Source of the DNA: Shigella phage ESh16
Sequence record: ON528726
Length of the DNA: 64,000 bases
Reading direction: 5' to 3' (one strand)
Positions 1,435-52,147 of this stretch are shown here, piece by piece. The position numbers and the translations under genes were made by a program. Numbering within the stretch: position 1 is the first letter of the stretch; each line of letters opens with the position of its first letter. The notes beneath the pieces are model-generated. The model did no database searches and had not been told where the DNA came from. It saw only the letters and a list, made by a program, of their open reading frames with translations.

Positions 1435-1956
1435 ATGTTTATTTCAAGTGGAAGTGGTTTAATTCGTGTTGAATTTAAAAATGACATCTTCCTTATTCAA
1501 GGAGATGATATTATTAAAATGAGTTATGACGAAATCAAGAAAATTTGTCATATTCTTGAAAGTCGTGGAAAAGGAAATGCTACTATCGATATAGGTGATT
1601 TATGGGTGACACTTTATGAAGTATCCGAAGGATTTAACATTGAAGATGAAAACAACATCTTAGCTATTGATAAAAGAAGCGATTTGTTTGATGTGTTAAA
1701 AGTTTATGAACAGTCAAACGGTGGAAGAAAAGCTGCATTGATTTATCAAAAACCACATTCATGCGGAACTGCTTCAATTATTTCAGATATTGAAGATGAA
1801 ACTGATACTTATATGTGTGTTTTAAAAGCTGGTGGTGACCGTCATCCGGATTTTATTTCTATTCGTCAAAACAATGGAGAAATTTCATTATCAAAATCAG
1901 AAGCTGAAGCTATGATTAAGTATTTAACAACTGTTACACCTTCAATGAAAGGATAA
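1435..1956 (+). CDS. hypothetical protein, tandem paralogue A2 (173 aa)
   Basis: C-terminus SKSEAEAMIKYLTTVTPSMKG parallels TKDEAIALKTYLDSVIPTMISK of the previous ORF. Confidence 0.5.
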   Translation: MFISSGSGLIRVEFKNDIFLIQGDDIIKMSYDEIKKICHILESRGKGNATIDIGDLWVTLYEVSEGFNIEDENNILAIDKRSDLFDVLKVYEQSNGGRKAALIYQKPHSCGTASIISDIEDETDTYMCVLKAGGDRHPDFISIRQNNGEISLSKSEAEAMIKYLTTVTPSMKG

Positions 1957-1958
1957 TT

Positions 1959-2420
1959 ATGATTATTAATGAAAACTCTTGGCACTATAAATTATTCAAA
2001 CTGTTTAATGATGAATGGAAACGACCTAAGACACTGTGTGCATACTTTTGGTCTATTGTTATCCCTACATTTTTCGTTTCTTTTTTCGGATGTACTATAC
2101 TCGCAGGTCTAACTATTATCTGTGCAGAAATCATGCAGAAATGGCTTATTTTTGGTAGTTTATGGACTCTTATTCCATCAGCATTTATACTTGCCATTTT
2201 GCTTGTTTTACTTATTATTGGTTCATTTGTTATTCCTGCACAACTGCATGAAAAATATAAAGATTATAAATGGAAAAAGGATTATGCTTTACATGTAGAA
2301 AATATTGATAGGGCGTATAAAGGTTTACCTCCTATTCAACCCAAGAAATCTATTATCGTCGAATTTTTAAAAGCGCGTAAAGCTAAAGTATGTCCTGTTA
2401 TTGAATATAAGGCTGAATGA
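1959..2420 (+). CDS. predicted membrane protein (153 aa)
   Basis: Several long hydrophobic stretches (FWSIVIPTFFVSFFGCTILAGLTIICA; LIPSAFILAILLVLLIIGSFVIP); stop overlaps next start. Confidence 0.45.
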   Translation: MIINENSWHYKLFKLFNDEWKRPKTLCAYFWSIVIPTFFVSFFGCTILAGLTIICAEIMQKWLIFGSLWTLIPSAFILAILLVLLIIGSFVIPAQLHEKYKDYKWKKDYALHVENIDRAYKGLPPIQPKKSIIVEFLKARKAKVCPVIEYKAE

Positions 2421-3430
2421 TGAAAACAGTAATGAAAAGCTATTTTGGTAGTCATCTTTATGGAACTTCTACTCCAGAATCTGATGTAGATTTTAAAGAA
2501 ATCTTTGTTCCTCCTGCTCGCGATATTCTTATTGGAAATGTTAAAGAGCATATGAGTAAAAACACTAACAACACATCATCTAAAAACACTAAAGATGATA
2601 TTGACCATGAACTATACAGTCTTAAGTATTTCTTTAAATTAGCAGCAGATGGTGAAACTGTAGCATTGGATATGCTCCACACTCCACCGGAACTAGTAGT
2701 TAAATCTGATTTGCCTGATGCATGGAAGTTTATTCAAGACAACCGTTCTCGTTTTTATACGACCAACATGAAATCCTACTTAGGATATGTTCGCAAGCAA
2801 GCTTCTAAATACGGTGTTAAGGGTTCTCGTTTGGCCGCATTACGTGATGTGTTGAAAGTAGTTAATCAAATCCCTGAGCAATGGGTTGATTACCAAGAAG
2901 ACGGTTCCATTAAGCAGCGTCGAACTAAAGTTGAAGATATTAAGCATCGTCTTCCAGAGAACGAATTCTGTGAATGGGTATTCCATAATCATGAGAAAAC
3001 AGGTCCACAAACGTTCTACACTGTGTTGGGTCGTAAATATCAAACAACGCTTTCTCTTATTGAGCTTAAGCAGTCTTTGAATAAACTTGATGCTGAATAC
3101 GGCGAACGTGCTCGTAAGGCTGAAGCGAATGAGGGCATTGACTGGAAAGCTCTGAGTCATGCTTGCCGTGGTGGACTCCAACTATTGGAAATTTACAAAA
3201 CTGGTGACTTAGTCTATCCACTTCAAGACGCTCCATTTATTCTCGACGTGAAGTTGGGTAAACATCCATTTAAAACTGTTCAAGAGTTTTTGGAAGATGT
3301 GGTCGATCAAGTAGAAGCAGCATCCATTGAAGCTTCTAAGAACGGTATGCAGCAAAAAGTAGACATGTGTTTTTGGGATGACTTCCTTGAGAGGGTTTAT
3401 CTTGAAAACCATCGAAGTTATTATAAATGA
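2417..3430 (+). CDS. nucleotidyltransferase-fold protein, MNT/pol-beta type (337 aa)
   Basis: N-terminal GSHLYGTSTPESDVDF fits the GS-x9-13-DxD motif of minimal nucleotidyltransferases; followed by a terminator hairpin. Confidence 0.55.
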   Translation: MMKTVMKSYFGSHLYGTSTPESDVDFKEIFVPPARDILIGNVKEHMSKNTNNTSSKNTKDDIDHELYSLKYFFKLAADGETVALDMLHTPPELVVKSDLPDAWKFIQDNRSRFYTTNMKSYLGYVRKQASKYGVKGSRLAALRDVLKVVNQIPEQWVDYQEDGSIKQRRTKVEDIKHRLPENEFCEWVFHNHEKTGPQTFYTVLGRKYQTTLSLIELKQSLNKLDAEYGERARKAEANEGIDWKALSHACRGGLQLLEIYKTGDLVYPLQDAPFILDVKLGKHPFKTVQEFLEDVVDQVEAASIEASKNGMQQKVDMCFWDDFLERVYLENHRSYYK

Positions 3431-3433
3431 TAG

Positions 3434-3457
3434 GGAGCCTTCGGGCTCCCTTTTTTT
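3434..3457 (+). terminator. rho-independent terminator (GGGAGCC-TTCG-GGCTCCC plus T7), 5' part of promoter cassette
   Basis: Perfect 7-bp stem, UUCG loop, TTTTTTT. Confidence 0.7.
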
Positions 3458-3462
3458 ATTTC

Positions 3463-3545
3463 AAAATTTTTTCACAAAACAGTTTACAAGCATAAAGCTT
3501 TATGGTACTATACAACTATCAACTGATACGGATTTGGAGAATAAA
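3463..3545 (+). promoter_or_regulatory. early promoter plus conserved leader (PeSL-like cassette copy)
   Basis: TTTTTCACAAAACAGTTTACA, TATGGTACTATACAACTATCAACTGATACGGATTTGGAGAAT, ATG 3546. Confidence 0.6.
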
Positions 3546-4514
3546 ATGAAAACTGTAACTATCAATAAGGGTATCTACTTCGGTAAAGAAATCTCTGGAA
3601 CTTTTGAGCTTTTAGGCGAATGGTTCCCAGATAATGCTCCGGTAGATGCACAAGGAGATGGTAAAGTTTTTGTTGAAATTGACGGTAAGCGTCGCGGTGT
3701 TTGGGTTTACAAATCAGATATTTCATATGATGGTGTAAAAGTTGAAGAAGTTAAAGAATCATATGAAGATATGAAAACCCGCATTAATAAAAGATTTAAT
3801 GTTATGGGAATGATGACGAATGGTATTATTAATGGAAATATTCGTTCATTGATTATCTCTGGCGCAGCAGGTATTGGTAAAACGTATTCTTTAGATAAAG
3901 CTTTAAATAAAGCAAATGATATTGGATACATTGAATATAAAAGCATTAATGGTAAAATCTCTGGTATTGGTCTTTATGAGCAGCTTTGGAATAATCGTGA
4001 AGAGAATTCTGTACTTTTGATTGATGATGTAGATGTTTTCTCTGATATGGACATTCTTAATCTTCTAAAAGCCGCTCTGGACACTGGAGAGACCCGTAAA
4101 GTCTGCTGGAGCACTGCGTCTTCTTACTTAGAAGAAAAAGGCATTGAGCGTGAGTTTGAATTTAAAGGAACGATTGTTTTTATCACAAACGTTGACATTG
4201 ACCGCGAATTAGACCGTGGTACTAAACTTGCTCCACATTTACAAGCATTAGTGTCCCGCTCAGTTTATTTAGATTTGGGTGTTCACACTAATGAAGAAAT
4301 TATGGTCAGGGTTGAAGATGTTATTCTTTCAACTGACATGATGCAAAAGCGCGGTCTTTCTGATGAAGAAACTTATAAAGCATTATCATGGATGAAAGTT
4401 AATGTTAATCGTTTACGCAATGTTTCACTGCGTACTGCTCTTTATCTTGCTGACTTTATTATGACCGACAAAAACGGTTGGGAAGAAATTGCTGAGGTTA
4501 CTCTTCTGAAATAA
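3546..4514 (+). CDS. P-loop (AAA-like) ATPase (323 aa)
   Basis: Walker A GAAGIGKT and Walker B LLIDDVD; true ATG at 3546 after promoter cassette (track ORF from 3378 reads through the promoter). Confidence 0.6.
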   Translation: MKTVTINKGIYFGKEISGTFELLGEWFPDNAPVDAQGDGKVFVEIDGKRRGVWVYKSDISYDGVKVEEVKESYEDMKTRINKRFNVMGMMTNGIINGNIRSLIISGAAGIGKTYSLDKALNKANDIGYIEYKSINGKISGIGLYEQLWNNREENSVLLIDDVDVFSDMDILNLLKAALDTGETRKVCWSTASSYLEEKGIEREFEFKGTIVFITNVDIDRELDRGTKLAPHLQALVSRSVYLDLGVHTNEEIMVRVEDVILSTDMMQKRGLSDEETYKALSWMKVNVNRLRNVSLRTALYLADFIMTDKNGWEEIAEVTLLK

Positions 4515-4612
4515 TTCATAAGAGGACTTCTATGACAAAAAGGCAGTTCAGAAATAGATTATATGGATTGCCATTAAAAAGATGACTAGAATTAAACTGG
4601 TGAATGGAGGTA

Positions 4613-4918
4613 ATGATGTTATACTCAAAGGCTCGTGAAATTTACGAAACTAAAATTAAAGAAGCAGTATTTAAGTTCGCAACGACAATGCGATGGACAA
4701 ATGACTGGGAGTATTCAAAAAATCATAAGAAGCCCATGGTGACAAGAAAGGCTCATATGTTAGTGTTAATAGACCGTGAGCAGATTAAAGCCCGAGAAGC
4801 CCTCCAGAATCATAAAAAGGCTGCCTTTGAATGGTTTATGGATAACACTGCTCCTGAGACTAAGAAAGCAGTGAGCGCCTGGTTCAGTGGAAAAAATTGT
4901 GAAAGAAGTTTCTTTTAG
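4613..4918 (+). CDS. hypothetical protein (about 101 aa)
   Basis: ORF with GGAGG at 4606-4610 ahead of in-frame ATGs at 4613/4616. Confidence 0.4.
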   Translation: MMLYSKAREIYETKIKEAVFKFATTMRWTNDWEYSKNHKKPMVTRKAHMLVLIDREQIKAREALQNHKKAAFEWFMDNTAPETKKAVSAWFSGKNCERSFF

Positions 4919-4978
4919 TGGTTTACAAGACTGTTCCTCTGTGGTACTATACAACTATCAACTACGGAGGAACAGAAA
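4911..4978 (+). promoter_or_regulatory. early promoter plus conserved leader (PeSL-like cassette copy)
   Basis: GTTTACAAGACTGTTCCTCTGTGGTACTATACAACTATCAACTACGGAGGAACAGAAA. Confidence 0.6.
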
Positions 4979-5506
4979 ATGAACGCTAAAGATATTTTCA
5001 ACTTGGTAAATTACAACGATGGTAAATTTAAATCTGAAGCACAAAGCAAGTTCTTTAATGACATCTCAATCGGAGGTGAAATCACTGTTGATGGAGGACA
5101 AATTTACAAATCCCGTTGGAATTGGATCGTTATTATTGATGAGATTGGTATTGTAGAAATTTACAAGAATACGAATAAAAATCGTACATTACACTGGTCT
5201 CGTGATACTAACGAACAGTACAAAAAGGATAAAGCATCTAAATTATCTCGTGTAACTCAAGAAGATATTGAGTTCATCAAGAAAGATATTTTAATGTATG
5301 ATAACTTAATTGCTGAAGAACAAGCTGTTATTGATAAATTTGACGAGATTAAAGCTTCTCGTGAAATTCCTGATTTTATGAAAGAATCGGTAAATGAACG
5401 ATACACTCTCATTTCAGAGCGTATTGAAACTTACAAAAAGCAAAGAGCTGAACGCCAAAATACTCTTCGGAAGTTTGAAGAACGGTTAAAGACGGTACTC
5501 GCATAA
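4979..5506 (+). CDS. hypothetical protein with C-terminal helical region (175 aa)
   Basis: ATG 4979 directly after promoter/leader cassette with GGAGG; charged helical C-terminus. Confidence 0.45.
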   Translation: MNAKDIFNLVNYNDGKFKSEAQSKFFNDISIGGEITVDGGQIYKSRWNWIVIIDEIGIVEIYKNTNKNRTLHWSRDTNEQYKKDKASKLSRVTQEDIEFIKKDILMYDNLIAEEQAVIDKFDEIKASREIPDFMKESVNERYTLISERIETYKKQRAERQNTLRKFEERLKTVLA

Positions 5507-5561
5507 CCGCTTTATACCAAGGATGGTATAATGGTTCTAAGCCCTTTTAATTGAGATTATT

Positions 5562-5969
5562 ATGAAACGGTTGATAATTAAAAGATTGAATTTATTGATA
5601 TGTTGTTTATGTGTAGTAGTTGCATATGGTTATTACGCAATTAATGATTATATGCATTATAAAGATTATGATGTTACTGTAGTTAATACCATTACAGGAA
5701 CACAAGGAAAAGGGTCTAGTTTATCGTTTATTGCCGTATATGAACTAAAAGACGGTTATAGATTTAGTGAATATATTTCCCCAGAGATGTATTCTTCAAT
5801 AGAAAAAGGTGATAATATTACTGTAAGTTTACGTCCTTTCGACGTAAAACAGACATTGTTTGATAATATTGTTTGGTTCTTTGGAATGGTATTAGTTCAA
5901 TCTGTGTGTGGTGCTTATATAGTCTGTTCCATCTTATTCTGTATATTTAGTAAAATTGAAATTGAGTGA
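5562..5969 (+). CDS. predicted membrane protein (135 aa)
   Basis: N-terminal (LLICCLCVVVAYGYYAI) and C-terminal (VWFFGMVLVQSVCGAYIVCSILFCIF) hydrophobic segments. Confidence 0.4.
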   Translation: MKRLIIKRLNLLICCLCVVVAYGYYAINDYMHYKDYDVTVVNTITGTQGKGSSLSFIAVYELKDGYRFSEYISPEMYSSIEKGDNITVSLRPFDVKQTLFDNIVWFFGMVLVQSVCGAYIVCSILFCIFSKIEIE

Positions 5970-5976
5970 GGAAAAT

Positions 5977-6867
5977 ATGTCAGTAGTAATTAATAATGTC
6001 AATGCAGTAATTAAATCTTTAGTTAATAAAAAAATGATGAATGAATGGACTGTATTTCGCCGTGCAGAGCCAGATAAATTTTTTCATAGATTTAACTCAA
6101 CTTTGGATTTGAATGTTATCGGCAGAGATGTTCATGCCGAAATTTTAGATAAGTTTAAAGTTGATATTGGATTTGGATTAGAAAAACATTTGCAGCGAAC
6201 AAATGGGTCTGGAATGAGTTTATCTAATCGCATTATGAAAGCTCTTAATAAAATTGGAGCATTGTCTCGTATTAACGCGAGTGAAATCCTTCGTAATTAT
6301 AATAAAGGATATGACCTTTATGGTCGACTAATGCCGAAATTATCATTCGATCAAATGATTGCGGATTTGTGGGAAAATCAACGACGATTATTAGCATTAG
6401 GCGCTCGATTAGCTAAAGGTCTAGATAAACAAATGATTTTTAAGACCAATAATACGGAAGACCTTAAATGCTTTAAATTTAGTACTCGTGGTATTGATTA
6501 TTATATCAGAGCTCACTCTACAGATTATGTCAATATGGGTCATCATCTCTGTTTAGCTTTTGAAGTTTTAAAAGAAGCTGGAACATTAGAATATTCATCT
6601 GGTGCAAAATGCCCTATTGGTTCAAGTTGTATTTTAATTTATCGCCCGGATGAATCCAGTTCAACTACATTGCCTACGAAACCTGTACCAGTTCGTAGTA
6701 ATGAAAAACATTCTGAACAAATTGATTATTTTAATAAGCAAATTGAAGAGCTGAATATTTCTATTCAACAATATGATGATGAAATTTTCAGACTATCTGG
6801 ACTGAGTAGTAAAGCTAAATCTGAGCGTGAAAAGTTAATTAAAATTGTCGATTTACTTAAATCTTAA
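5977..6867 (+). CDS. hypothetical protein with C-terminal coiled coil, possible family member P1 (296 aa)
   Basis: ATG 5977 after SD GAGGAAAA; C-terminal helical region similar in style to the next three ORFs. Confidence 0.45.
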   Translation: MSVVINNVNAVIKSLVNKKMMNEWTVFRRAEPDKFFHRFNSTLDLNVIGRDVHAEILDKFKVDIGFGLEKHLQRTNGSGMSLSNRIMKALNKIGALSRINASEILRNYNKGYDLYGRLMPKLSFDQMIADLWENQRRLLALGARLAKGLDKQMIFKTNNTEDLKCFKFSTRGIDYYIRAHSTDYVNMGHHLCLAFEVLKEAGTLEYSSGAKCPIGSSCILIYRPDESSSTTLPTKPVPVRSNEKHSEQIDYFNKQIEELNISIQQYDDEIFRLSGLSSKAKSEREKLIKIVDLLKS

Positions 6868-6875
6868 GGAATACC

Positions 6876-7898
6876 ATGAAAACTCGTTCTCAAATTGAAG
6901 ATATGGTTCGTACTGCCAGCGATACTCGTAATGTTATGACATTTTTGTGCGAAAATAATTTAGACCCTGATAAAGTTAATCGTGCTATTCATCACTTTAA
7001 ATATCTAAATAGCAGTGAATGGGTGAGTAATTTTAGTAAAGCGGGGTATATTACACAAATGACGGCTCGTGAGCAGCTTACCGATTTCTGTAAAACTATT
7101 GATTATAAAAATCCTCTATTTGTTCAAGGCGTTGGTCAAAGTAAGGTCGATTTATCATCTGGATTTTTCAATCCAAATCATTATCGTATTGAATGGAGAT
7201 TTATTGCTCTGTTCCGTAGACAATTAAAGCAAATTTTGTCGACTGCTAGTCGATTAAAAGGTTCTGACATTAACTTAAAGAACCTGAAATTTGATGGTTA
7301 TACTCTTCAGATGGAAGTAAGACCATTAAAAGAAAATAACAGAACTGCGCGAATTAGCTTTAAACCTAATACAAAAAATTCTCTTTCAATTTGCGAATGC
7401 CTTAAATCGCAGTTGACAGAAGCATTTAAGTATATGGATGTTGTTGCCACTGTTCAGTCTAAGATTTCACAGCATTTCGAACGATTTAAATTAGACACAA
7501 CAACATATGAACTTGATATGTTCGTTTCATTTAAATACGATTTTTTGAGAAAGGACGAAGTCCCGCAAGAGAAAAAGCAGGAAGTGCAAGATATCTTAAA
7601 TTTATCCAATTACTCATCAAACGATCCTAAATTTTGGATGTATAGCTCAAGCAATATAGATGCATGTAAACTTAATAAAGTGAGTTTTCTTCCTACTGAA
7701 AATTCAAATTTTAAACCTGTAGAAAAATGGCACGCTGACGCGATTGAGAAGTCTCTTAAGGCAGTAGATGATGAACTCGTTAAAGCGACCAATGAAGTGC
7801 TAGAAACTGAAAAGGTGTTAGAACAAGCTCAGTCAAGGGTTCAAAATCTGACAAAGCAACGTTCTAAACTGAACAATGCACTAAATGCACTAAACTAG
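6876..7898 (+). CDS. paralogue-family protein P2 (340 aa)
   Basis: N-terminus MKTRSQIED; block WRFIALFRRQLKQILSTASRLKGSD matches P3; C-terminal coiled coil. Confidence 0.55.
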   Translation: MKTRSQIEDMVRTASDTRNVMTFLCENNLDPDKVNRAIHHFKYLNSSEWVSNFSKAGYITQMTAREQLTDFCKTIDYKNPLFVQGVGQSKVDLSSGFFNPNHYRIEWRFIALFRRQLKQILSTASRLKGSDINLKNLKFDGYTLQMEVRPLKENNRTARISFKPNTKNSLSICECLKSQLTEAFKYMDVVATVQSKISQHFERFKLDTTTYELDMFVSFKYDFLRKDEVPQEKKQEVQDILNLSNYSSNDPKFWMYSSSNIDACKLNKVSFLPTENSNFKPVEKWHADAIEKSLKAVDDELVKATNEVLETEKVLEQAQSRVQNLTKQRSKLNNALNALN

Positions 7899-7927
7899 TT
7901 TACTTTGCCACAAGGATGTGGTATAAT
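7898..7927 (+). promoter_or_regulatory. early promoter (GTTTAC, TATAAT)
   Basis: GTTTACTTTGCCACAAGGATGTGGTATAAT; near-identical copy at 52118-52147. Confidence 0.6.
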
Positions 7928-7955
7928 GTTCTTACTTTCTACTGAGGAGATTAAT

Positions 7956-8957
7956 ATGACTCGTAACGAATATATCAAATCATTCAATAGCGTTATTGAT
8001 GATAAAGTTAAACCTGTGTCTAGTCAGAATAGCGTTATTTCCATTATCAATCAATGGCTCAATAATACTGATGCAAGTATTGTTTCTTCCAGCAAATTTA
8101 TTCATGAAGTTCATAAAATTTCTAGTCGCGAATATAAAGATGATATTAAGGAAACCTTTAAAGGGTCTCGTCTTCTTTCATATTTAGTTAACCAAGATAT
8201 TCTTGGTAAATTTGGGAAAGAAATTAAACGAACTAAAGATGTAGTAGGATATAATTGGTTCGGTGATGTTAATTCATATCATCTTAATATTAAAGAAGAT
8301 CCTGATAATATTTTTACTCGTCGTTGGATTAGTAATTTCAGACTTTTCAAAAAGCAAATTCTAAAATCAGCTTCTAAATTATGCTATGGCGATTATCGTC
8401 AAATTCATCCTTGGGCTTCTGATATGATTATCATAAAAGAATATGAACTTGATAAAAATAAAGCAGCTATTTTTGTGAATTATGAATTTTTTACACCAGA
8501 AGCTAATCAAAAGAACATCAATAAATTTTTCTCAATTGCTAGCGATATAACTCGTCAATTAGAGACTGCACTACTTTGTATGGAAACAGTAGAAAATATT
8601 CATACATATCCTTTCAAAAATATGTGTGGTTGGGAAGGATATAAAATTATAATTAGCCTTCGTGAAGTGAAATGTGCGTACTCACCGACTGATAAAGAAA
8701 TTTACCAACAAAAATGTGATGAAATTGCGAATACTCCTAAAGAAGAAACTACCCTTGAGGAACTAATGGAATGTCTTGATGATTCACCTGAACCGGTAGA
8801 AATTCGTCCAGAAGTTATTGCATTAGAAAAAGCTTATAAAGAAGCTCTAGAAATTTCTAATAAAGCGCAGAAAGAATATGAGCAGGCTAAAAGGATTTGG
8901 GAAGAATCTGTTAATCGCCTGGATCGTCTTGAACAAGCTTTACAGTTAATTAAGTAA
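7956..8957 (+). CDS. paralogue-family protein P3 (333 aa)
   Basis: ATG 7956 after early promoter at 7898-7927; block RRWISNFRLFKKQILKSASKLCYGD; C-terminal coiled coil. Confidence 0.55.
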   Translation: MTRNEYIKSFNSVIDDKVKPVSSQNSVISIINQWLNNTDASIVSSSKFIHEVHKISSREYKDDIKETFKGSRLLSYLVNQDILGKFGKEIKRTKDVVGYNWFGDVNSYHLNIKEDPDNIFTRRWISNFRLFKKQILKSASKLCYGDYRQIHPWASDMIIIKEYELDKNKAAIFVNYEFFTPEANQKNINKFFSIASDITRQLETALLCMETVENIHTYPFKNMCGWEGYKIIISLREVKCAYSPTDKEIYQQKCDEIANTPKEETTLEELMECLDDSPEPVEIRPEVIALEKAYKEALEISNKAQKEYEQAKRIWEESVNRLDRLEQALQLIK

Positions 8958-9009
8958 TTTAAAGCCAAGGATGGCTCGGAGTATAAATCATTAACCAAGT
9001 GAGAAGAAC

Positions 9010-9936
9010 ATGAAAACTCGTAAACATTATATTGATTATTTTGACAGCCTTATTACTAAACACCGTAATTATCAGATCGGACACAGAGCAGTAATCAATA
9101 ATATTCTTCGTGATTTTTTAGACTATATTGGATGGGAAAACCATATTTGTAAAGATACACAAAATGCATATTCACATTCTCTTGGTTCTTTGCTAGAGTG
9201 GTTCAAACGTTCCCGATTACTATCTTCTGTAGTAGCTGTTAATAATGTTAAAAAATTTATGTATCCAAGCTACATTGAGACTAATGTATCAAATGCTAAT
9301 GTTGTTACATTTAATATTATTAATGACGTGAAAAGAACTTATTTAGAAGAATGGTTTTCTAAAAATAGTAAAGAAAAATTCGCTAGTGAGTTTTCAGGTG
9401 AATTTAATGAGAACGTTAATATGCTTTTTAAGCATTCTCGTAGACTGTTTTGTCATGGTGATAATCGTACTATTAATGTGAATGTAAAAGACTGGGTTAC
9501 TGCTAAATTCACTCCATCATCCCAGAATGGACAATTTGAATTATCAATTATCATTTGTGCTCCGCACGAGATATATAAAAATCTTCCGTATATGAAACCG
9601 CACGAAGCTAATAAACACAATGAAACTATTAGTTCTTTGGCTTATAATTTGCGTGAGTTATTATCTAATATGGATGTAGTTAAATCCTTTGATGATAATA
9701 CGAATTATGGTCTTTCACTGTTTGAAACTAAATTTGTTATTAAGTTAAAGGACCCCAGCGAATTTAAACCTACACCAAAGCACAATCATGGGAATGATAC
9801 TATGAAAGAAGAACGTGAATATCTCAGTGCTCGTTTGATTGAAGTTGAAAAACAGATTGAAGAGCATACTAAAGTTCTTAAGGCTTTAACCGCCAAAGCA
9901 GATGGTTTACGTGATGCTATTGAGGTGCTGAAATGA
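9010..9936 (+). CDS. paralogue-family protein P4 (308 aa)
   Basis: N-terminus MKTRKHYIDYF; SRLLSSVVAVNN and RRLFCHGDNR resemble P3; C-terminal coiled coil. Confidence 0.55.
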   Translation: MKTRKHYIDYFDSLITKHRNYQIGHRAVINNILRDFLDYIGWENHICKDTQNAYSHSLGSLLEWFKRSRLLSSVVAVNNVKKFMYPSYIETNVSNANVVTFNIINDVKRTYLEEWFSKNSKEKFASEFSGEFNENVNMLFKHSRRLFCHGDNRTINVNVKDWVTAKFTPSSQNGQFELSIIICAPHEIYKNLPYMKPHEANKHNETISSLAYNLRELLSNMDVVKSFDDNTNYGLSLFETKFVIKLKDPSEFKPTPKHNHGNDTMKEEREYLSARLIEVEKQIEEHTKVLKALTAKADGLRDAIEVLK

Positions 9937-10250
9937 AAAAGCGTCTATTAGAAGATATTGCAGCTTCAAGTAATTCCAGTCTAATTAAAATTATTATGGC
10001 TGGTGAAGAAGACGATTTGGAAATGCGTGGAAAGATTCATGGTTGTGACGATTTAGATTTTAAACCTCCAGCTTGGGATGCCATTATGGCTATGGTTGAA
10101 CGTCGCGAAAGGGCTTCTAAAAACGTTCCTAATTGTCCTGAATGCGGTACTGAACAGGTACAATTAGTTCATTGGCAGACTAGTAATCTTCGTTATAAAT
10201 GTCGTCATTGTAAACACCGATTTGAGAGAGAAGAAAATGTCCAAGCGTAA
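9933..10250 (+). CDS. small zinc-ribbon protein (105 aa)
   Basis: C-terminal CPECG...CRHCKH four-cysteine pair. Confidence 0.45.
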
Positions 10251-10479
10251 AGAATATATGAAGACTGCTGAAATGGCAGTCCGCGAATTAGCAATAGCTT
10301 ATTATTATGAACATGGTAAATTTCCTGATAGATACAGCGTGCTTAAATCTGCTTTAACTCGTTCATATAAAAATATGCTATCAGAAGTAAGTGATATTAT
10401 ATACAAACATAAAGAACAAACGGGCCAAAGTCTTGATTACGACGAGACTTTTAAACAAGTACTAGGAATTAAGGAATAA
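10237..10479 (+). CDS. hypothetical protein (80 aa)
   Basis: ATG 10237 in-frame within track ORF 10222 (TTG start). Confidence 0.35.
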
Positions 10480-50300: not shown

Positions 50301-52118
50301 ATGATTAAGAATGAAATTAAAATTCTGAGCGATATTGAACATATCAAAAAGCGTAGCGGCATGTACATTGGTTCTTCTGCTAATGAAATGCATGAGCGCT
50401 TTCTGTTTGGTAAATGGGAAAGTGTTCAGTATGTACCTGGTCTTGTTAAGCTTATTGATGAAATTATCGATAACTCAGTAGATGAAGGTATTCGTACTAA
50501 GTTTAAATTCGCAAATAAAATTAATGTTACTATCAAAAACAACCAAGTAACAGTTGAAGATAACGGTCGTGGTATTCCACAGGCAATGGTTAAAACACCT
50601 ACCGGTGAAGAAATTCCTGGTCCTGTTGCTGCCTGGACTATTCCAAAAGCAGGTGGTAACTTCGGTGATGATAAAGAACGTGTCACTGGCGGTATGAACG
50701 GTGTTGGTTCTAGTTTAACTAACATTTTTTCTGTGATGTTTGTCGGTGAAACTGGCGACGGTCAAAATAATATTGTAGTTCGTTGTTCAAATGGCATGGA
50801 AAATAAATCATGGGAAACTATTCCTGGAAAATGGAAAGGAACTCGTGTTACTTTCATTCCTGATTTTATGTCATTTGAAACTAATGAGCTATCTCAGGTT
50901 TATCTTGACATTACACTAGATCGTCTCCAGACACTTGCAGTAGTTTATCCTGATATTCAATTTACCTTTAACGGTAAAAAGGTTCAGGGTAATTTTAAGA
51001 AATATGCACGCCAATATGATGAGCATGCTATTGTTCAAGAACAAGAAAATTGTTCTATTGCGGTTGGTCGTTCACCGGATGGTTTTCGTCAATTAACATA
51101 CGTTAATAACATTCATACTAAGAATGGTGGTCATCACATTGACTGTGTTATGGATGATATTTGTGAAGACCTTATTCCACAAATCAAACGTAAGTTCAAA
51201 ATTGATGTAACTAAAGCACGTGTTAAAGAATGTTTGACTATCGTTATGTTTGTTCGTGATATGAAAAACATGCGATTTGATTCTCAGACTAAAGAGCGTT
51301 TGACTTCTCCATTTGGTGAAATTCGTAGTCATATTCAGCTTGATGCTAAAAAGATTTCACGCGCTATTTTAAACAATGAAGCAATTTTAATGCCAATTAT
51401 TGAAGCTGCCTTGGCTCGTAAATTGGCGGCAGAAAAAGCAGCAGAAACTAAAGCAGCTAAAAAGGCTTCTAAAGCTAAGGTTCATAAACATATTAAAGCG
51501 AATCTTTGCGGTAAAGACGCTGACACTACTCTTTTCTTGACTGAGGGTGATTCTGCTATCGGATATCTTATTGATGTTCGTGATAAAGAACTTCATGGCG
51601 GTTATCCATTACGTGGTAAAGTTCTCAACAGTTGGGGTATGTCATATGCTGATATGCTTAAAAACAAAGAACTGTTTGATATTTGCGCAATCACTGGATT
51701 AGTTCTTGGTGAAAAAGCCGAAAACTTGAATTATCATAATATTGCTATTATGACCGATGCTGACCATGATGGTCTAGGAAGCATTTATCCTTCTCTGCTC
51801 GGATTTTTTAGTAATTGGCCAGAACTGTTTGAACAAGGAAGAATTCGCTTCGTCAAAACTCCTGTAATCATCGCTCAGGTCGGTAAAAAACAAGAATGGT
51901 TTTATACAGTCGCTGAATATGAGAGTGCCAAGGATGCTCTACCTAAACATAGCATCCGTTATATTAAGGGACTTGGCTCTTTGGAAAAATCTGAATATCG
52001 TGAGATGATTCAAAACCCAGTATATGATGTTGTTAAACTTCCTGAGAATTGGAAAGAGCTTTTTGAAATGCTCATGGGAGATAATGCTGACCTTCGTAAA
52101 GAATGGATGAGCCAATAG
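50301..52118 (+). CDS. 39: DNA topoisomerase II large subunit gp39, unsplit (605 aa)
   Basis: GHKL ATPase N-terminus plus TOPRIM (LTEGDSA, DADHDG) in one ORF, i.e. T4 gp39 and gp60 parts contiguous. Confidence 0.93.
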   Translation: MIKNEIKILSDIEHIKKRSGMYIGSSANEMHERFLFGKWESVQYVPGLVKLIDEIIDNSVDEGIRTKFKFANKINVTIKNNQVTVEDNGRGIPQAMVKTPTGEEIPGPVAAWTIPKAGGNFGDDKERVTGGMNGVGSSLTNIFSVMFVGETGDGQNNIVVRCSNGMENKSWETIPGKWKGTRVTFIPDFMSFETNELSQVYLDITLDRLQTLAVVYPDIQFTFNGKKVQGNFKKYARQYDEHAIVQEQENCSIAVGRSPDGFRQLTYVNNIHTKNGGHHIDCVMDDICEDLIPQIKRKFKIDVTKARVKECLTIVMFVRDMKNMRFDSQTKERLTSPFGEIRSHIQLDAKKISRAILNNEAILMPIIEAALARKLAAEKAAETKAAKKASKAKVHKHIKANLCGKDADTTLFLTEGDSAIGYLIDVRDKELHGGYPLRGKVLNSWGMSYADMLKNKELFDICAITGLVLGEKAENLNYHNIAIMTDADHDGLGSIYPSLLGFFSNWPELFEQGRIRFVKTPVIIAQVGKKQEWFYTVAEYESAKDALPKHSIRYIKGLGSLEKSEYREMIQNPVYDVVKLPENWKELFEMLMGDNADLRKEWMSQ

Positions 52119-52147
52119 TTTACTTTACCACAAGGATGTGGTATAAT
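52118..52147 (+). promoter_or_regulatory. early promoter (GTTTAC, TATAAT), near-identical to 7898-7927
   Basis: GTTTACTTTACCACAAGGATGTGGTATAAT. Confidence 0.6.

Follow-up and report, generated by a model that had tools for sequence, protein, structure and literature searches.

The nrdC.6-nrdC.3 array of phage ESh16

A stretch of 64,000 nucleotides from the genome of Shigella phage ESh16 (ON528726; the whole stretch is hereafter referred to as the window) contains four consecutive open reading frames (ORFs) on the plus strand, starting at positions 5977, 6876, 7956 and 9010 and encoding proteins of 296, 340, 333 and 308 amino acids (aa), each preceded by a Shine-Dalgarno-like sequence. The array is a tandem set of four genes that arose by ancient duplications and belong to one superfamily, located in the known nrdC.6-5-4-3 block of phage T4 (Table 1). 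The window belongs to a Tequatrovirus. Over its 5500-10300 region, identity is 99.8% with Shigella phage ESh34 and 94-97% with hundreds of Tequatrovirus genomes, and at least 446 phage records, counting those that cover at least 80% of this region, retain an intact array. The syntenic, annotated record LR746311 names the ORFs nrdC.6, nrdC.5, nrdC.4 and nrdC.3, with nrdC.7/8/9 upstream and nrdC.2, nrdC.1, nrdC, pin, 49 and nrdD downstream, and phage T4 has the same four genes. The stop codon of nrdC.3 overlaps the start of nrdC.2.

An earlier, sequence-only reading of the window had described the four ORFs correctly as diverged paralogues, but could not map them to a characterized T4 protein and saw in them its top candidate for an undescribed module. 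In fact, all four have counterparts in T4, are already covered by Pfam and PHROGs and include one member with a characterized phenotype. Three Pfam families match the array, namely, PF26897 (nrdC.4/3), PF23882 (nrdC.5) and PF26899 (nrdC.6), and in PHROGs, nrdC.4 and nrdC.3 fall into phrog_1435, nrdC.5 into phrog_2351 and nrdC.6 into phrog_2257. PF26897 is precomputed on every nrdC.4/3 homologue that we found, and the nrdC.6 homologues carry PF26899. The match of the nrdC.5 ORF to PF23882 covers residues 1-340 with 388.5 bits (cut-off 30), and the same model has no match in the nrdC.6, nrdC.4 or nrdC.3 ORF. The nrdC.5 ORF shares 91.8% amino-acid identity with T4 NrdC.5 and likewise lies between nrdC.6 and nrdC.4. 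For nrdC.4, the ATG at 7956 was preferred over the upstream TTG/ATG codons because the homologues from Dhakavirus and Gaprivervirus all start with MTRNEY. A longer, 378-aa version of nrdC.6 (P0121), exceeding the usual length by ~82 residues, is encoded by the Shigella phage Sf25 and may be a read-through product or an upstream fusion.

Many of the GenBank records matching the 5500-10300 region label all genes from nrdC.1 to nrdC.8 as 'thioredoxin' (e.g. 'thioredoxin (x8)'). For the four array proteins this label is wrong, because none of them has a Pfam match to a thioredoxin or glutaredoxin domain and the CxxC motif is absent from all four; the label has evidently been carried over from the gene-name prefix nrdC.x. 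The earlier statement that no enzymatic motif is visible also holds, given that searches against Pfam, PADLOC and PDB sequences yielded no enzymatic, defence or solved-structure relative, with DUF7235 as the sole above-threshold match. Weak Pfam matches to Cas6b_C, SNARE and DUF4164 were discarded because we regard them as noise that coiled coils or small alpha/beta segments produce.

Table 1. Coordinates of the array genes, their shared sequence elements and the internal early promoter in the window
Feature	Coordinates	Strand	Evidence and remarks
nrdC.6 homologue, 296 aa	5977..6867	+	PF26899 Phage_T4_Y05B; phrog_2257, E 2.7e-150; most diverged paralogue
nrdC.5 homologue, 340 aa	6876..7898	+	PF23882 DUF7235; phrog_2351; orthologue of T4 anti-Dsr1 gene
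nrdC.4 homologue, 333 aa	7956..8957	+	PF26897 Phage_T4_Y04OP; phrog_1435, E 1.7e-164
nrdC.3 homologue, 308 aa	9010..9936	+	phrog_1435, E 1.6e-99; Pfam family as nrdC.4
Motif 1, nrdC.6, IMKALNKIGALSRINASEILRNYNKG	6232..6309	+	hhalign register with the other paralogues
Motif 1, nrdC.5, WVSNFSKAGYITQMTAREQLTDFCK	7020..7094	+	hhalign/MAFFT
Motif 1, nrdC.4, IKETFKGSRLLSYLVNQDILGKFGK	8145..8219	+	alignment
Motif 1, nrdC.3, LLEWFKRSRLLSSVVAVNNVKKFMY	9190..9264	+	alignment
Motif 2, nrdC.6, LWENQRRLLALGARLAKGLDKQMIFKT, predicted helix pair	6367..6447	+	aligned to outgroup NWRMILTLGSRLCVGSSRELEFKT
Motif 2, nrdC.5, WRFIALFRRQLKQILSTASRLKGSD	7194..7268	+	hhalign/MAFFT
Motif 2, nrdC.4, RRWISNFRLFKKQILKSASKLCYGD	8319..8393	+	hhalign/MAFFT
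Motif 2, nrdC.3, FSGEFNENVNMLFKHSRRLFCHGDNR	9391..9468	+	alignment/MAFFT
C-terminal heptad helix region, nrdC.6	6682..6864	+	AlphaFold2 helices 242-272 and 278-295; heptad p < 0.005
C-terminal heptad helix, nrdC.5, residues 281-340, starts at Pro	7716..7895	+	AlphaFold2 helix 281-339 (59 residues); heptad p < 0.001
C-terminal heptad helix, nrdC.4	8808..8954	+	heptad p = 0.0005
C-terminal heptad helix, nrdC.3	9802..9933	+	heptad p <= 0.0045
T4-type early promoter, GTTTAC-N17-(TG)gTATAAT, extended -10	7898..7927	+	between nrdC.5 and nrdC.4

Relationship among the four proteins and to single-copy proteins of other genera

The four paralogues are mutually only 13-20% identical, and among the four ORFs, BLASTP detects a single significant pair, nrdC.4 versus nrdC.3 (E 8e-4, 24% identity over 324 aa); nrdC.3 is alignable to the nrdC.4 family over its whole length. 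For more sensitive comparison, alignments were built for each family and compared using hhalign, with column-shuffled queries as the null. The nrdC.5 family is connected to nrdC.4/3 over 149 columns (E 8e-5), with a score of 39.9 versus 14.8 +/- 2.4 for the null (z ~10), and the joint MAFFT alignment of nrdC.5/4/3 is colinear from the N-terminal T-R through the C-terminal L..AL..LK. The direct comparison of nrdC.6 with nrdC.4/3 is marginal and within the shuffled range (E 0.03, score of 23.0 versus 15.2 +/- 3.3), and that with nrdC.5 is at the shuffled null (E 0.5). Nevertheless, in all three hhalign pairings, including those with nrdC.6, the same two motifs fall into register. The proteins do contain the N-termini MKTRSQ, MTRNEY and MKTRKHY as well as the internal blocks quoted in the sequence-only reading, and both MAFFT and hhalign place the blocks in the same columns. 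Direct comparison among the array sequences themselves establishes the paralogy only in part, and nrdC.6 is joined to the other three only via outgroup profiles.

The path to these outgroups starts from nrdC.4/3. An exhaustive search of 1.84 billion proteins with a hidden Markov model (HMM) of this family returned only 10 matches, which is why we consider the family to be confined to T4-like phages; no nrdC.5 or nrdC.6 family members were among the 10. The key intermediate among these matches is a 315-aa protein from Klebsiella phages of the genus Marfavirus (P0233). From this protein, tblastn leads to one of 335 aa in Enterobacter phage IME523 (Kanagawavirus; E 2e-9) and from the latter to a 309-aa protein of Pectobacterium phage PM2 (E 3e-13). 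A Foldseek search of BFVD with the AlphaFold2 model of nrdC.6 recovered a 335-aa protein from IME523 (E 1e-6) and a 309-aa protein from PM2 (E 3e-6) as full-length matches with a TM score of 0.47; these were taken to be identical to the proteins found by tblastn because their lengths fit the annotated coding sequences. With either the nrdC.6 or the nrdC.5 model, Foldseek recovered proteins of 300-370 aa from other T4-like phages. In IME523, PEi20, PM2 and F48, the outgroup gene is present in a single copy directly upstream of nrdC.2, that is, in the slot occupied by the array in T4.

The outgroup profile matches the nrdC.6 family over 234 columns (95.9% probability, E 6e-9, z 21) and the combined nrdC.5+4+3 alignment with comparable strength (96.7% probability, E 3e-10, z 23). 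With the F48 protein added, the profile matches each family separately, with E-values of 1e-8 for nrdC.4/3, 2e-7 for nrdC.5 and 8.5e-9 for nrdC.6. Overall, the comparisons between the outgroup and the families yield hhalign probabilities of 93-98%, with E-values from 2e-7 to 1e-13 and z of 19-35 over the column-shuffle null. Furthermore, an HMM built solely from the four outgroup proteins was run against the 94 ORFs of at least 80 aa in the window and ranked the four array ORFs on top (E 2e-8, 4e-6, 4e-6 and 2e-3; the next ORF at 0.12). Because exactly these four ORFs are singled out, we assign them to one superfamily, upholding the paralogy proposed from sequence; no fifth member was detected among the 94 ORFs.

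The AlphaFold2 models of nrdC.6 (pLDDT 76.5) and nrdC.5 (pLDDT 67.8, built from the joint alignment) have the same order of elements. A helical N-terminal domain opens with several helices and continues with two helix pairs, the first of which bears motif 1 (e.g. IKETFKGSRLLSYLVNQDILGKFG) and the second motif 2; it is followed by a two-layer ββαββ domain, a low-confidence linker, which is variable and probably disordered, and a long, amphipathic terminal helix. The consensus of motif 2 is NQRRLLALGARLAKG..FKT in nrdC.6 and the outgroup proteins and F..QILK.ASKL..GD in nrdC.4 and nrdC.5. The heptad-like C-terminal helix noted earlier is confirmed by the a/d periodicity in the last 49 residues of all four proteins (p <= 0.0045), although for nrdC.4, the test passes only with Ala, Tyr and Trp counted as core residues and is not significant with LIVMF alone, as well as by the helices in the nrdC.5 and nrdC.6 models. 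The proline that opens this helix is invariant (14/14 superfamily sequences), and the proteins end with KL..A...LK. The earlier picture of conserved termini enclosing a diverged core needs one correction: the two internal motifs and the ββαββ domain are shared as well, and among the Tequatrovirus orthologues, the C-terminal helix is the least variable segment, residues 60-180 are also among the most conserved, and variability peaks in residues 20-60 and in the linker ahead of the C-terminal helix.

Copy number, rearrangements and selection

Across the T4-like genera compared, 1, 3 or 4 copies occupy the same slot upstream of nrdC.2, as assessed using HMMs on the fetched loci together with record annotations. 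In the window, T4, MX01, DK-13, SP18, PM2, PEi20, IME523 and F48, the slot lies between nrdC.8/9 and nrdC, and nrdC.2 follows immediately after the end of the array. Kanagawavirus, Mosugukvirus and Marfavirus carry one copy, directly upstream of nrdC.2; Dhakavirus MX01 and Gaprivervirus DK-13 carry three (nrdC.6, an nrdC.5-like gene and nrdC.4), as does Gaprivervirus SP18; and Tequatrovirus has all four. nrdC.3 was not found in the Dhakavirus and Gaprivervirus loci examined and was seen only in Tequatrovirus. In the neighbour-joining tree, there are three orthologue clades, with nrdC.3 as sister to the nrdC.4 clade, and the Kanagawavirus and Mosugukvirus proteins are nearest to nrdC.6. Given that the paralogues are only 13-20% identical, the duplications must be old.

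Some natural phages have rearranged versions of the array. In SP18, two ORFs, gp093 and gp092 (positions 4038-4550 and 4565-4942 of the fetched locus L002), make up a split nrdC.5-like copy, and each of them is matched by the nrdC.5 profile, whereas the DK-13 copy is intact (295 aa). In a T4-like metagenomic lineage represented by 4 contigs (e.g. L008, positions 3570-4900, and L009, positions 1931-3261), nrdC.4 has been deleted, and a 115-aa piece from the N-terminus of nrdC.5 precedes a 299-aa protein (P0056) that joins nrdC.5 residues ~146 to 268 to the C-terminal half of nrdC.3.

The sequence-only reading attributed the divergence of the array to diversifying selection, which the gene-wide data do not support. 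Gene-wide ratios of nonsynonymous to synonymous substitution rates (dN/dS) relative to T4 are 0.24 for nrdC.5, 0.23 for nrdC.4, 0.20 for nrdC.3 and 0.06 for nrdC.6, well below 1 and 5-15 times those of the neighbouring enzyme genes (0.014-0.036 for nrdC.10, nrdC.11, nrdC, 49 and nrdD). The values are similar to those of pin, which encodes a Lon inhibitor (0.22-0.45; 0.22 versus T4). The array is under relaxed purifying selection rather than gene-wide positive selection.

Several features of the surroundings deserve mention. nrdC.7 (5562-5969), a predicted membrane protein gene that adjoins the array upstream in Tequatrovirus, has the highest dN/dS of the region versus T4 (0.48). The Dhakavirus and Gaprivervirus loci lack this gene, and in PM2 its position is downstream of nrdC.2. 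Further upstream, nrdC.10, encoding an AAA-like protein of 322 aa, and nrdC.11 are very strongly constrained (dN/dS of 0.02-0.04). A mechanically listed ORF of 378 aa (3378-4514) overlaps nrdC.11 (2417-3430), and nrdC.10 has the ATG at 3546 as its conserved start codon.

The window contains the early-promoter pattern represented between nrdC.5 and nrdC.4 five times as an exact match, in each case on the plus strand, compared to a chance expectation of 0.05. The promoter at 7898-7927 is identical in 29/30 positions to that at 52118-52147, also on the plus strand (GTTTACTTTGCCACAAGGATGTGGTATAAT versus GTTTACTTTACCACAAGGATGTGGTATAAT), and the spacers of both contain the inverted repeat CCACA-AGGA-TGTGG; the terminator scan flagged the former promoter as a hairpin (7906-7923). 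A generic scan for sigma-70 promoters and terminators showed no enrichment over shuffles.

Proposed function and comparison with known systems

Functional information is available for one member of the array. A T4 deletion clone is unable to infect the strain ECOR17 owing to dsr1, and T4 nrdC.5 alone restores plating of the deletion phage on MG1655 carrying ECOR17 dsr1 (Srikant, Guegler and Laub, eLife 2022, PMC9391042). The authors term nrdC.5 an early gene, propose no mechanism for it and note no paralogues (PMC9391042). The suggestion of anti-defence effectors in the sequence-only reading matches these published data for nrdC.5 versus Dsr1, and for this member only. According to a 2026 preprint, the bilobed tetratricopeptide repeat (TPR) sensor of Dsr1 detects the major capsid proteins of phages (PMC12803255).

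We consider it on balance probable that the array encodes early-expressed, non-catalytic proteins which oligomerize via the coiled coil and bind and block host immune proteins, with nrdC.5 acting on Dsr1 and its paralogues on other targets. Under this scenario, the nrdC.3-6 proteins would be produced early in infection and would dimerize or form larger oligomers through the C-terminal heptad helix. The oligomers may then bind host immune proteins directly and thereby block them; NrdC.5 would neutralize the SIR2-TPR NADase Dsr1, whereas the nrdC.3, nrdC.4 and nrdC.6 products would have taken on other sensors or variants as they diverged, in a putative anti-defence role. We infer that these three genes are good candidates for a counter-defence job similar to that of nrdC.5.

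Several considerations weigh against this scenario. The published result on nrdC.5 is genetic and could be indirect, and literature searches for nrdC.3, nrdC.4, nrdC.6, DUF7235 and Dsr1 inhibitors returned nothing past Srikant et al. 2022 and no function for nrdC.3/4/6. The gene-wide dN/dS of the array is below 1, such that an arms-race signature is not demonstrated. Both AlphaFold2 models reach moderate confidence levels (pLDDT 68 and 76), and in the Foldseek searches of BFVD with the nrdC.6 and nrdC.5 models, neither recovered the T4 family of the other.

The alternatives concern either the membership of the array or the function of its products. The resemblance of nrdC.6 could be compositional or convergent, a product of the coiled coil and other helices, in which case the array would comprise three paralogues and one unrelated gene. 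The weak direct hhalign matches of nrdC.6 and its separation from the other families in Pfam and PHROGs fit this possibility, but the outgroup profile matches nrdC.6 across its globular part as well and does so about as strongly as it matches nrdC.5/4/3, structure search independently yielded the same outgroup proteins, the outgroup genes occupy the same slot upstream of nrdC.2, and the motif NQRRLLALGARLAKG..FKT corresponds to NWRMILTLGSRLCVG..FKT. Collectively, these observations render an unrelated origin of nrdC.6 highly improbable. A functional alternative is that the proteins are host-takeover factors, in which the ββαββ domain and the helix imitate the dimerization module of RNA polymerase alpha/Rpb11 and act on transcription or another housekeeping complex, the rescue from Dsr1 being a side effect. 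The resemblance to the fold of the RNA polymerase alpha N-terminal domain, Rpb11 and RpoL is at low identity and comes with no sequence signal, the N-terminal domain, the linker and the long terminal helix are without counterpart in that fold, and unrelated two-layer sandwiches, such as tail terminators and designed proteins, score equally well. We regard this interpretation as quite unlikely.

A more serious competitor, although still an unlikely one in our assessment, is that the anti-defence role is restricted to nrdC.5, whereas nrdC.3, nrdC.4 and nrdC.6 are old paralogues with unrelated accessory jobs or in slow decay. The low identity among the paralogues, the existence of natural phages with a split nrdC.5 homologue (SP18) or with a broken nrdC.5::nrdC.3 fusion and no nrdC.4, and the lack of published phenotypes for nrdC.3, nrdC.4 and nrdC.6 are all compatible with such a restriction. 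This alternative is harder to reconcile with four intact genes, dN/dS values of 0.06-0.24 and the maintenance of the array in at least 446 records; moreover, the three orthologue lineages predate the split of Tequatrovirus, Dhakavirus and Gaprivervirus, and all four proteins have kept the common architecture, including the C-terminal helix.

Returning to the scenario of a counter-defence array, we tentatively put forward a bolder version, which we consider possible but rather doubtful, namely, that the superfamily is a modular platform for inhibition of immune sensors. The conserved coiled coil and ββαββ domain would serve as a scaffold that presents a variable N-terminal surface (residues 20-60) and the variable linker, with each paralogue directed against a different TPR-sensor defence of the Dsr1/Avs7 type or another NADase defence. 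If so, the expansion of the array from a single copy to 3 and then 4 would follow the repertoire of defences in Escherichia and Shigella hosts, and the paralogues might hetero-oligomerize via their related C-terminal helices.

T4 is the reference lytic phage, and yet, most of its non-essential early genes are without known function. The placement of nrdC.5 in a four-gene array of paralogues points to three concrete candidates for new counter-defence activities, and the domain map, by separating the conserved scaffold from the variable surfaces, can guide the dissection of Dsr1 inhibition. The series of 1, 3 and 4 copies provides a natural route to understanding how phages diversify their counter-defence genes. 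The analysis also corrects the widespread 'thioredoxin' mis-annotation of nrdC.3-6.

Among the characterized systems, the closest is T4 NrdC.5 itself (Y05A, PF23882), to which the ORF at 6876-7898 is orthologous; the products of the other three ORFs are its remote homologues with the same architecture, sharing only 13-20% identity with nrdC.5. A functional parallel is DSAD1, a protein of the SPbeta phage. DSAD1 inhibits the related SIR2 NADase DSR2 by binding (PMC10981675, PMC11087589); this phage protein switches off a defence-associated sirtuin by binding to its sensor region, in competition with the activating phage structural protein, a mode of action that we borrow as a working model for nrdC.5. 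The array proteins showed no sequence or fold homology to DSAD1 when compared. In its layout, the array resembles the T4 'anti-TA island' dmd-tifA-adfA, in which small non-essential early genes are clustered and each is directed against a different host defence (PMC9391042). The copy number of counter-defence genes can shift by recombination, leading to their amplification (PMC9391042). However, the genes of dmd-tifA-adfA are mutually unrelated, whereas the neighbouring nrdC.3-6 are paralogues that originated from ancient duplications, not recent amplifications. Finally, PF26897, PF26899 and PHROGs 1435/2257/2351 already contain these proteins, and nrdC.3 and nrdC.4 already fall together in both PF26897 and phrog_1435, but Pfam and PHROGs present the array as three unrelated families of unknown function. 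What the present analysis adds is the unification of these three database families, their link to the single-copy relatives from other genera, a map of the domains and the series of copy numbers.

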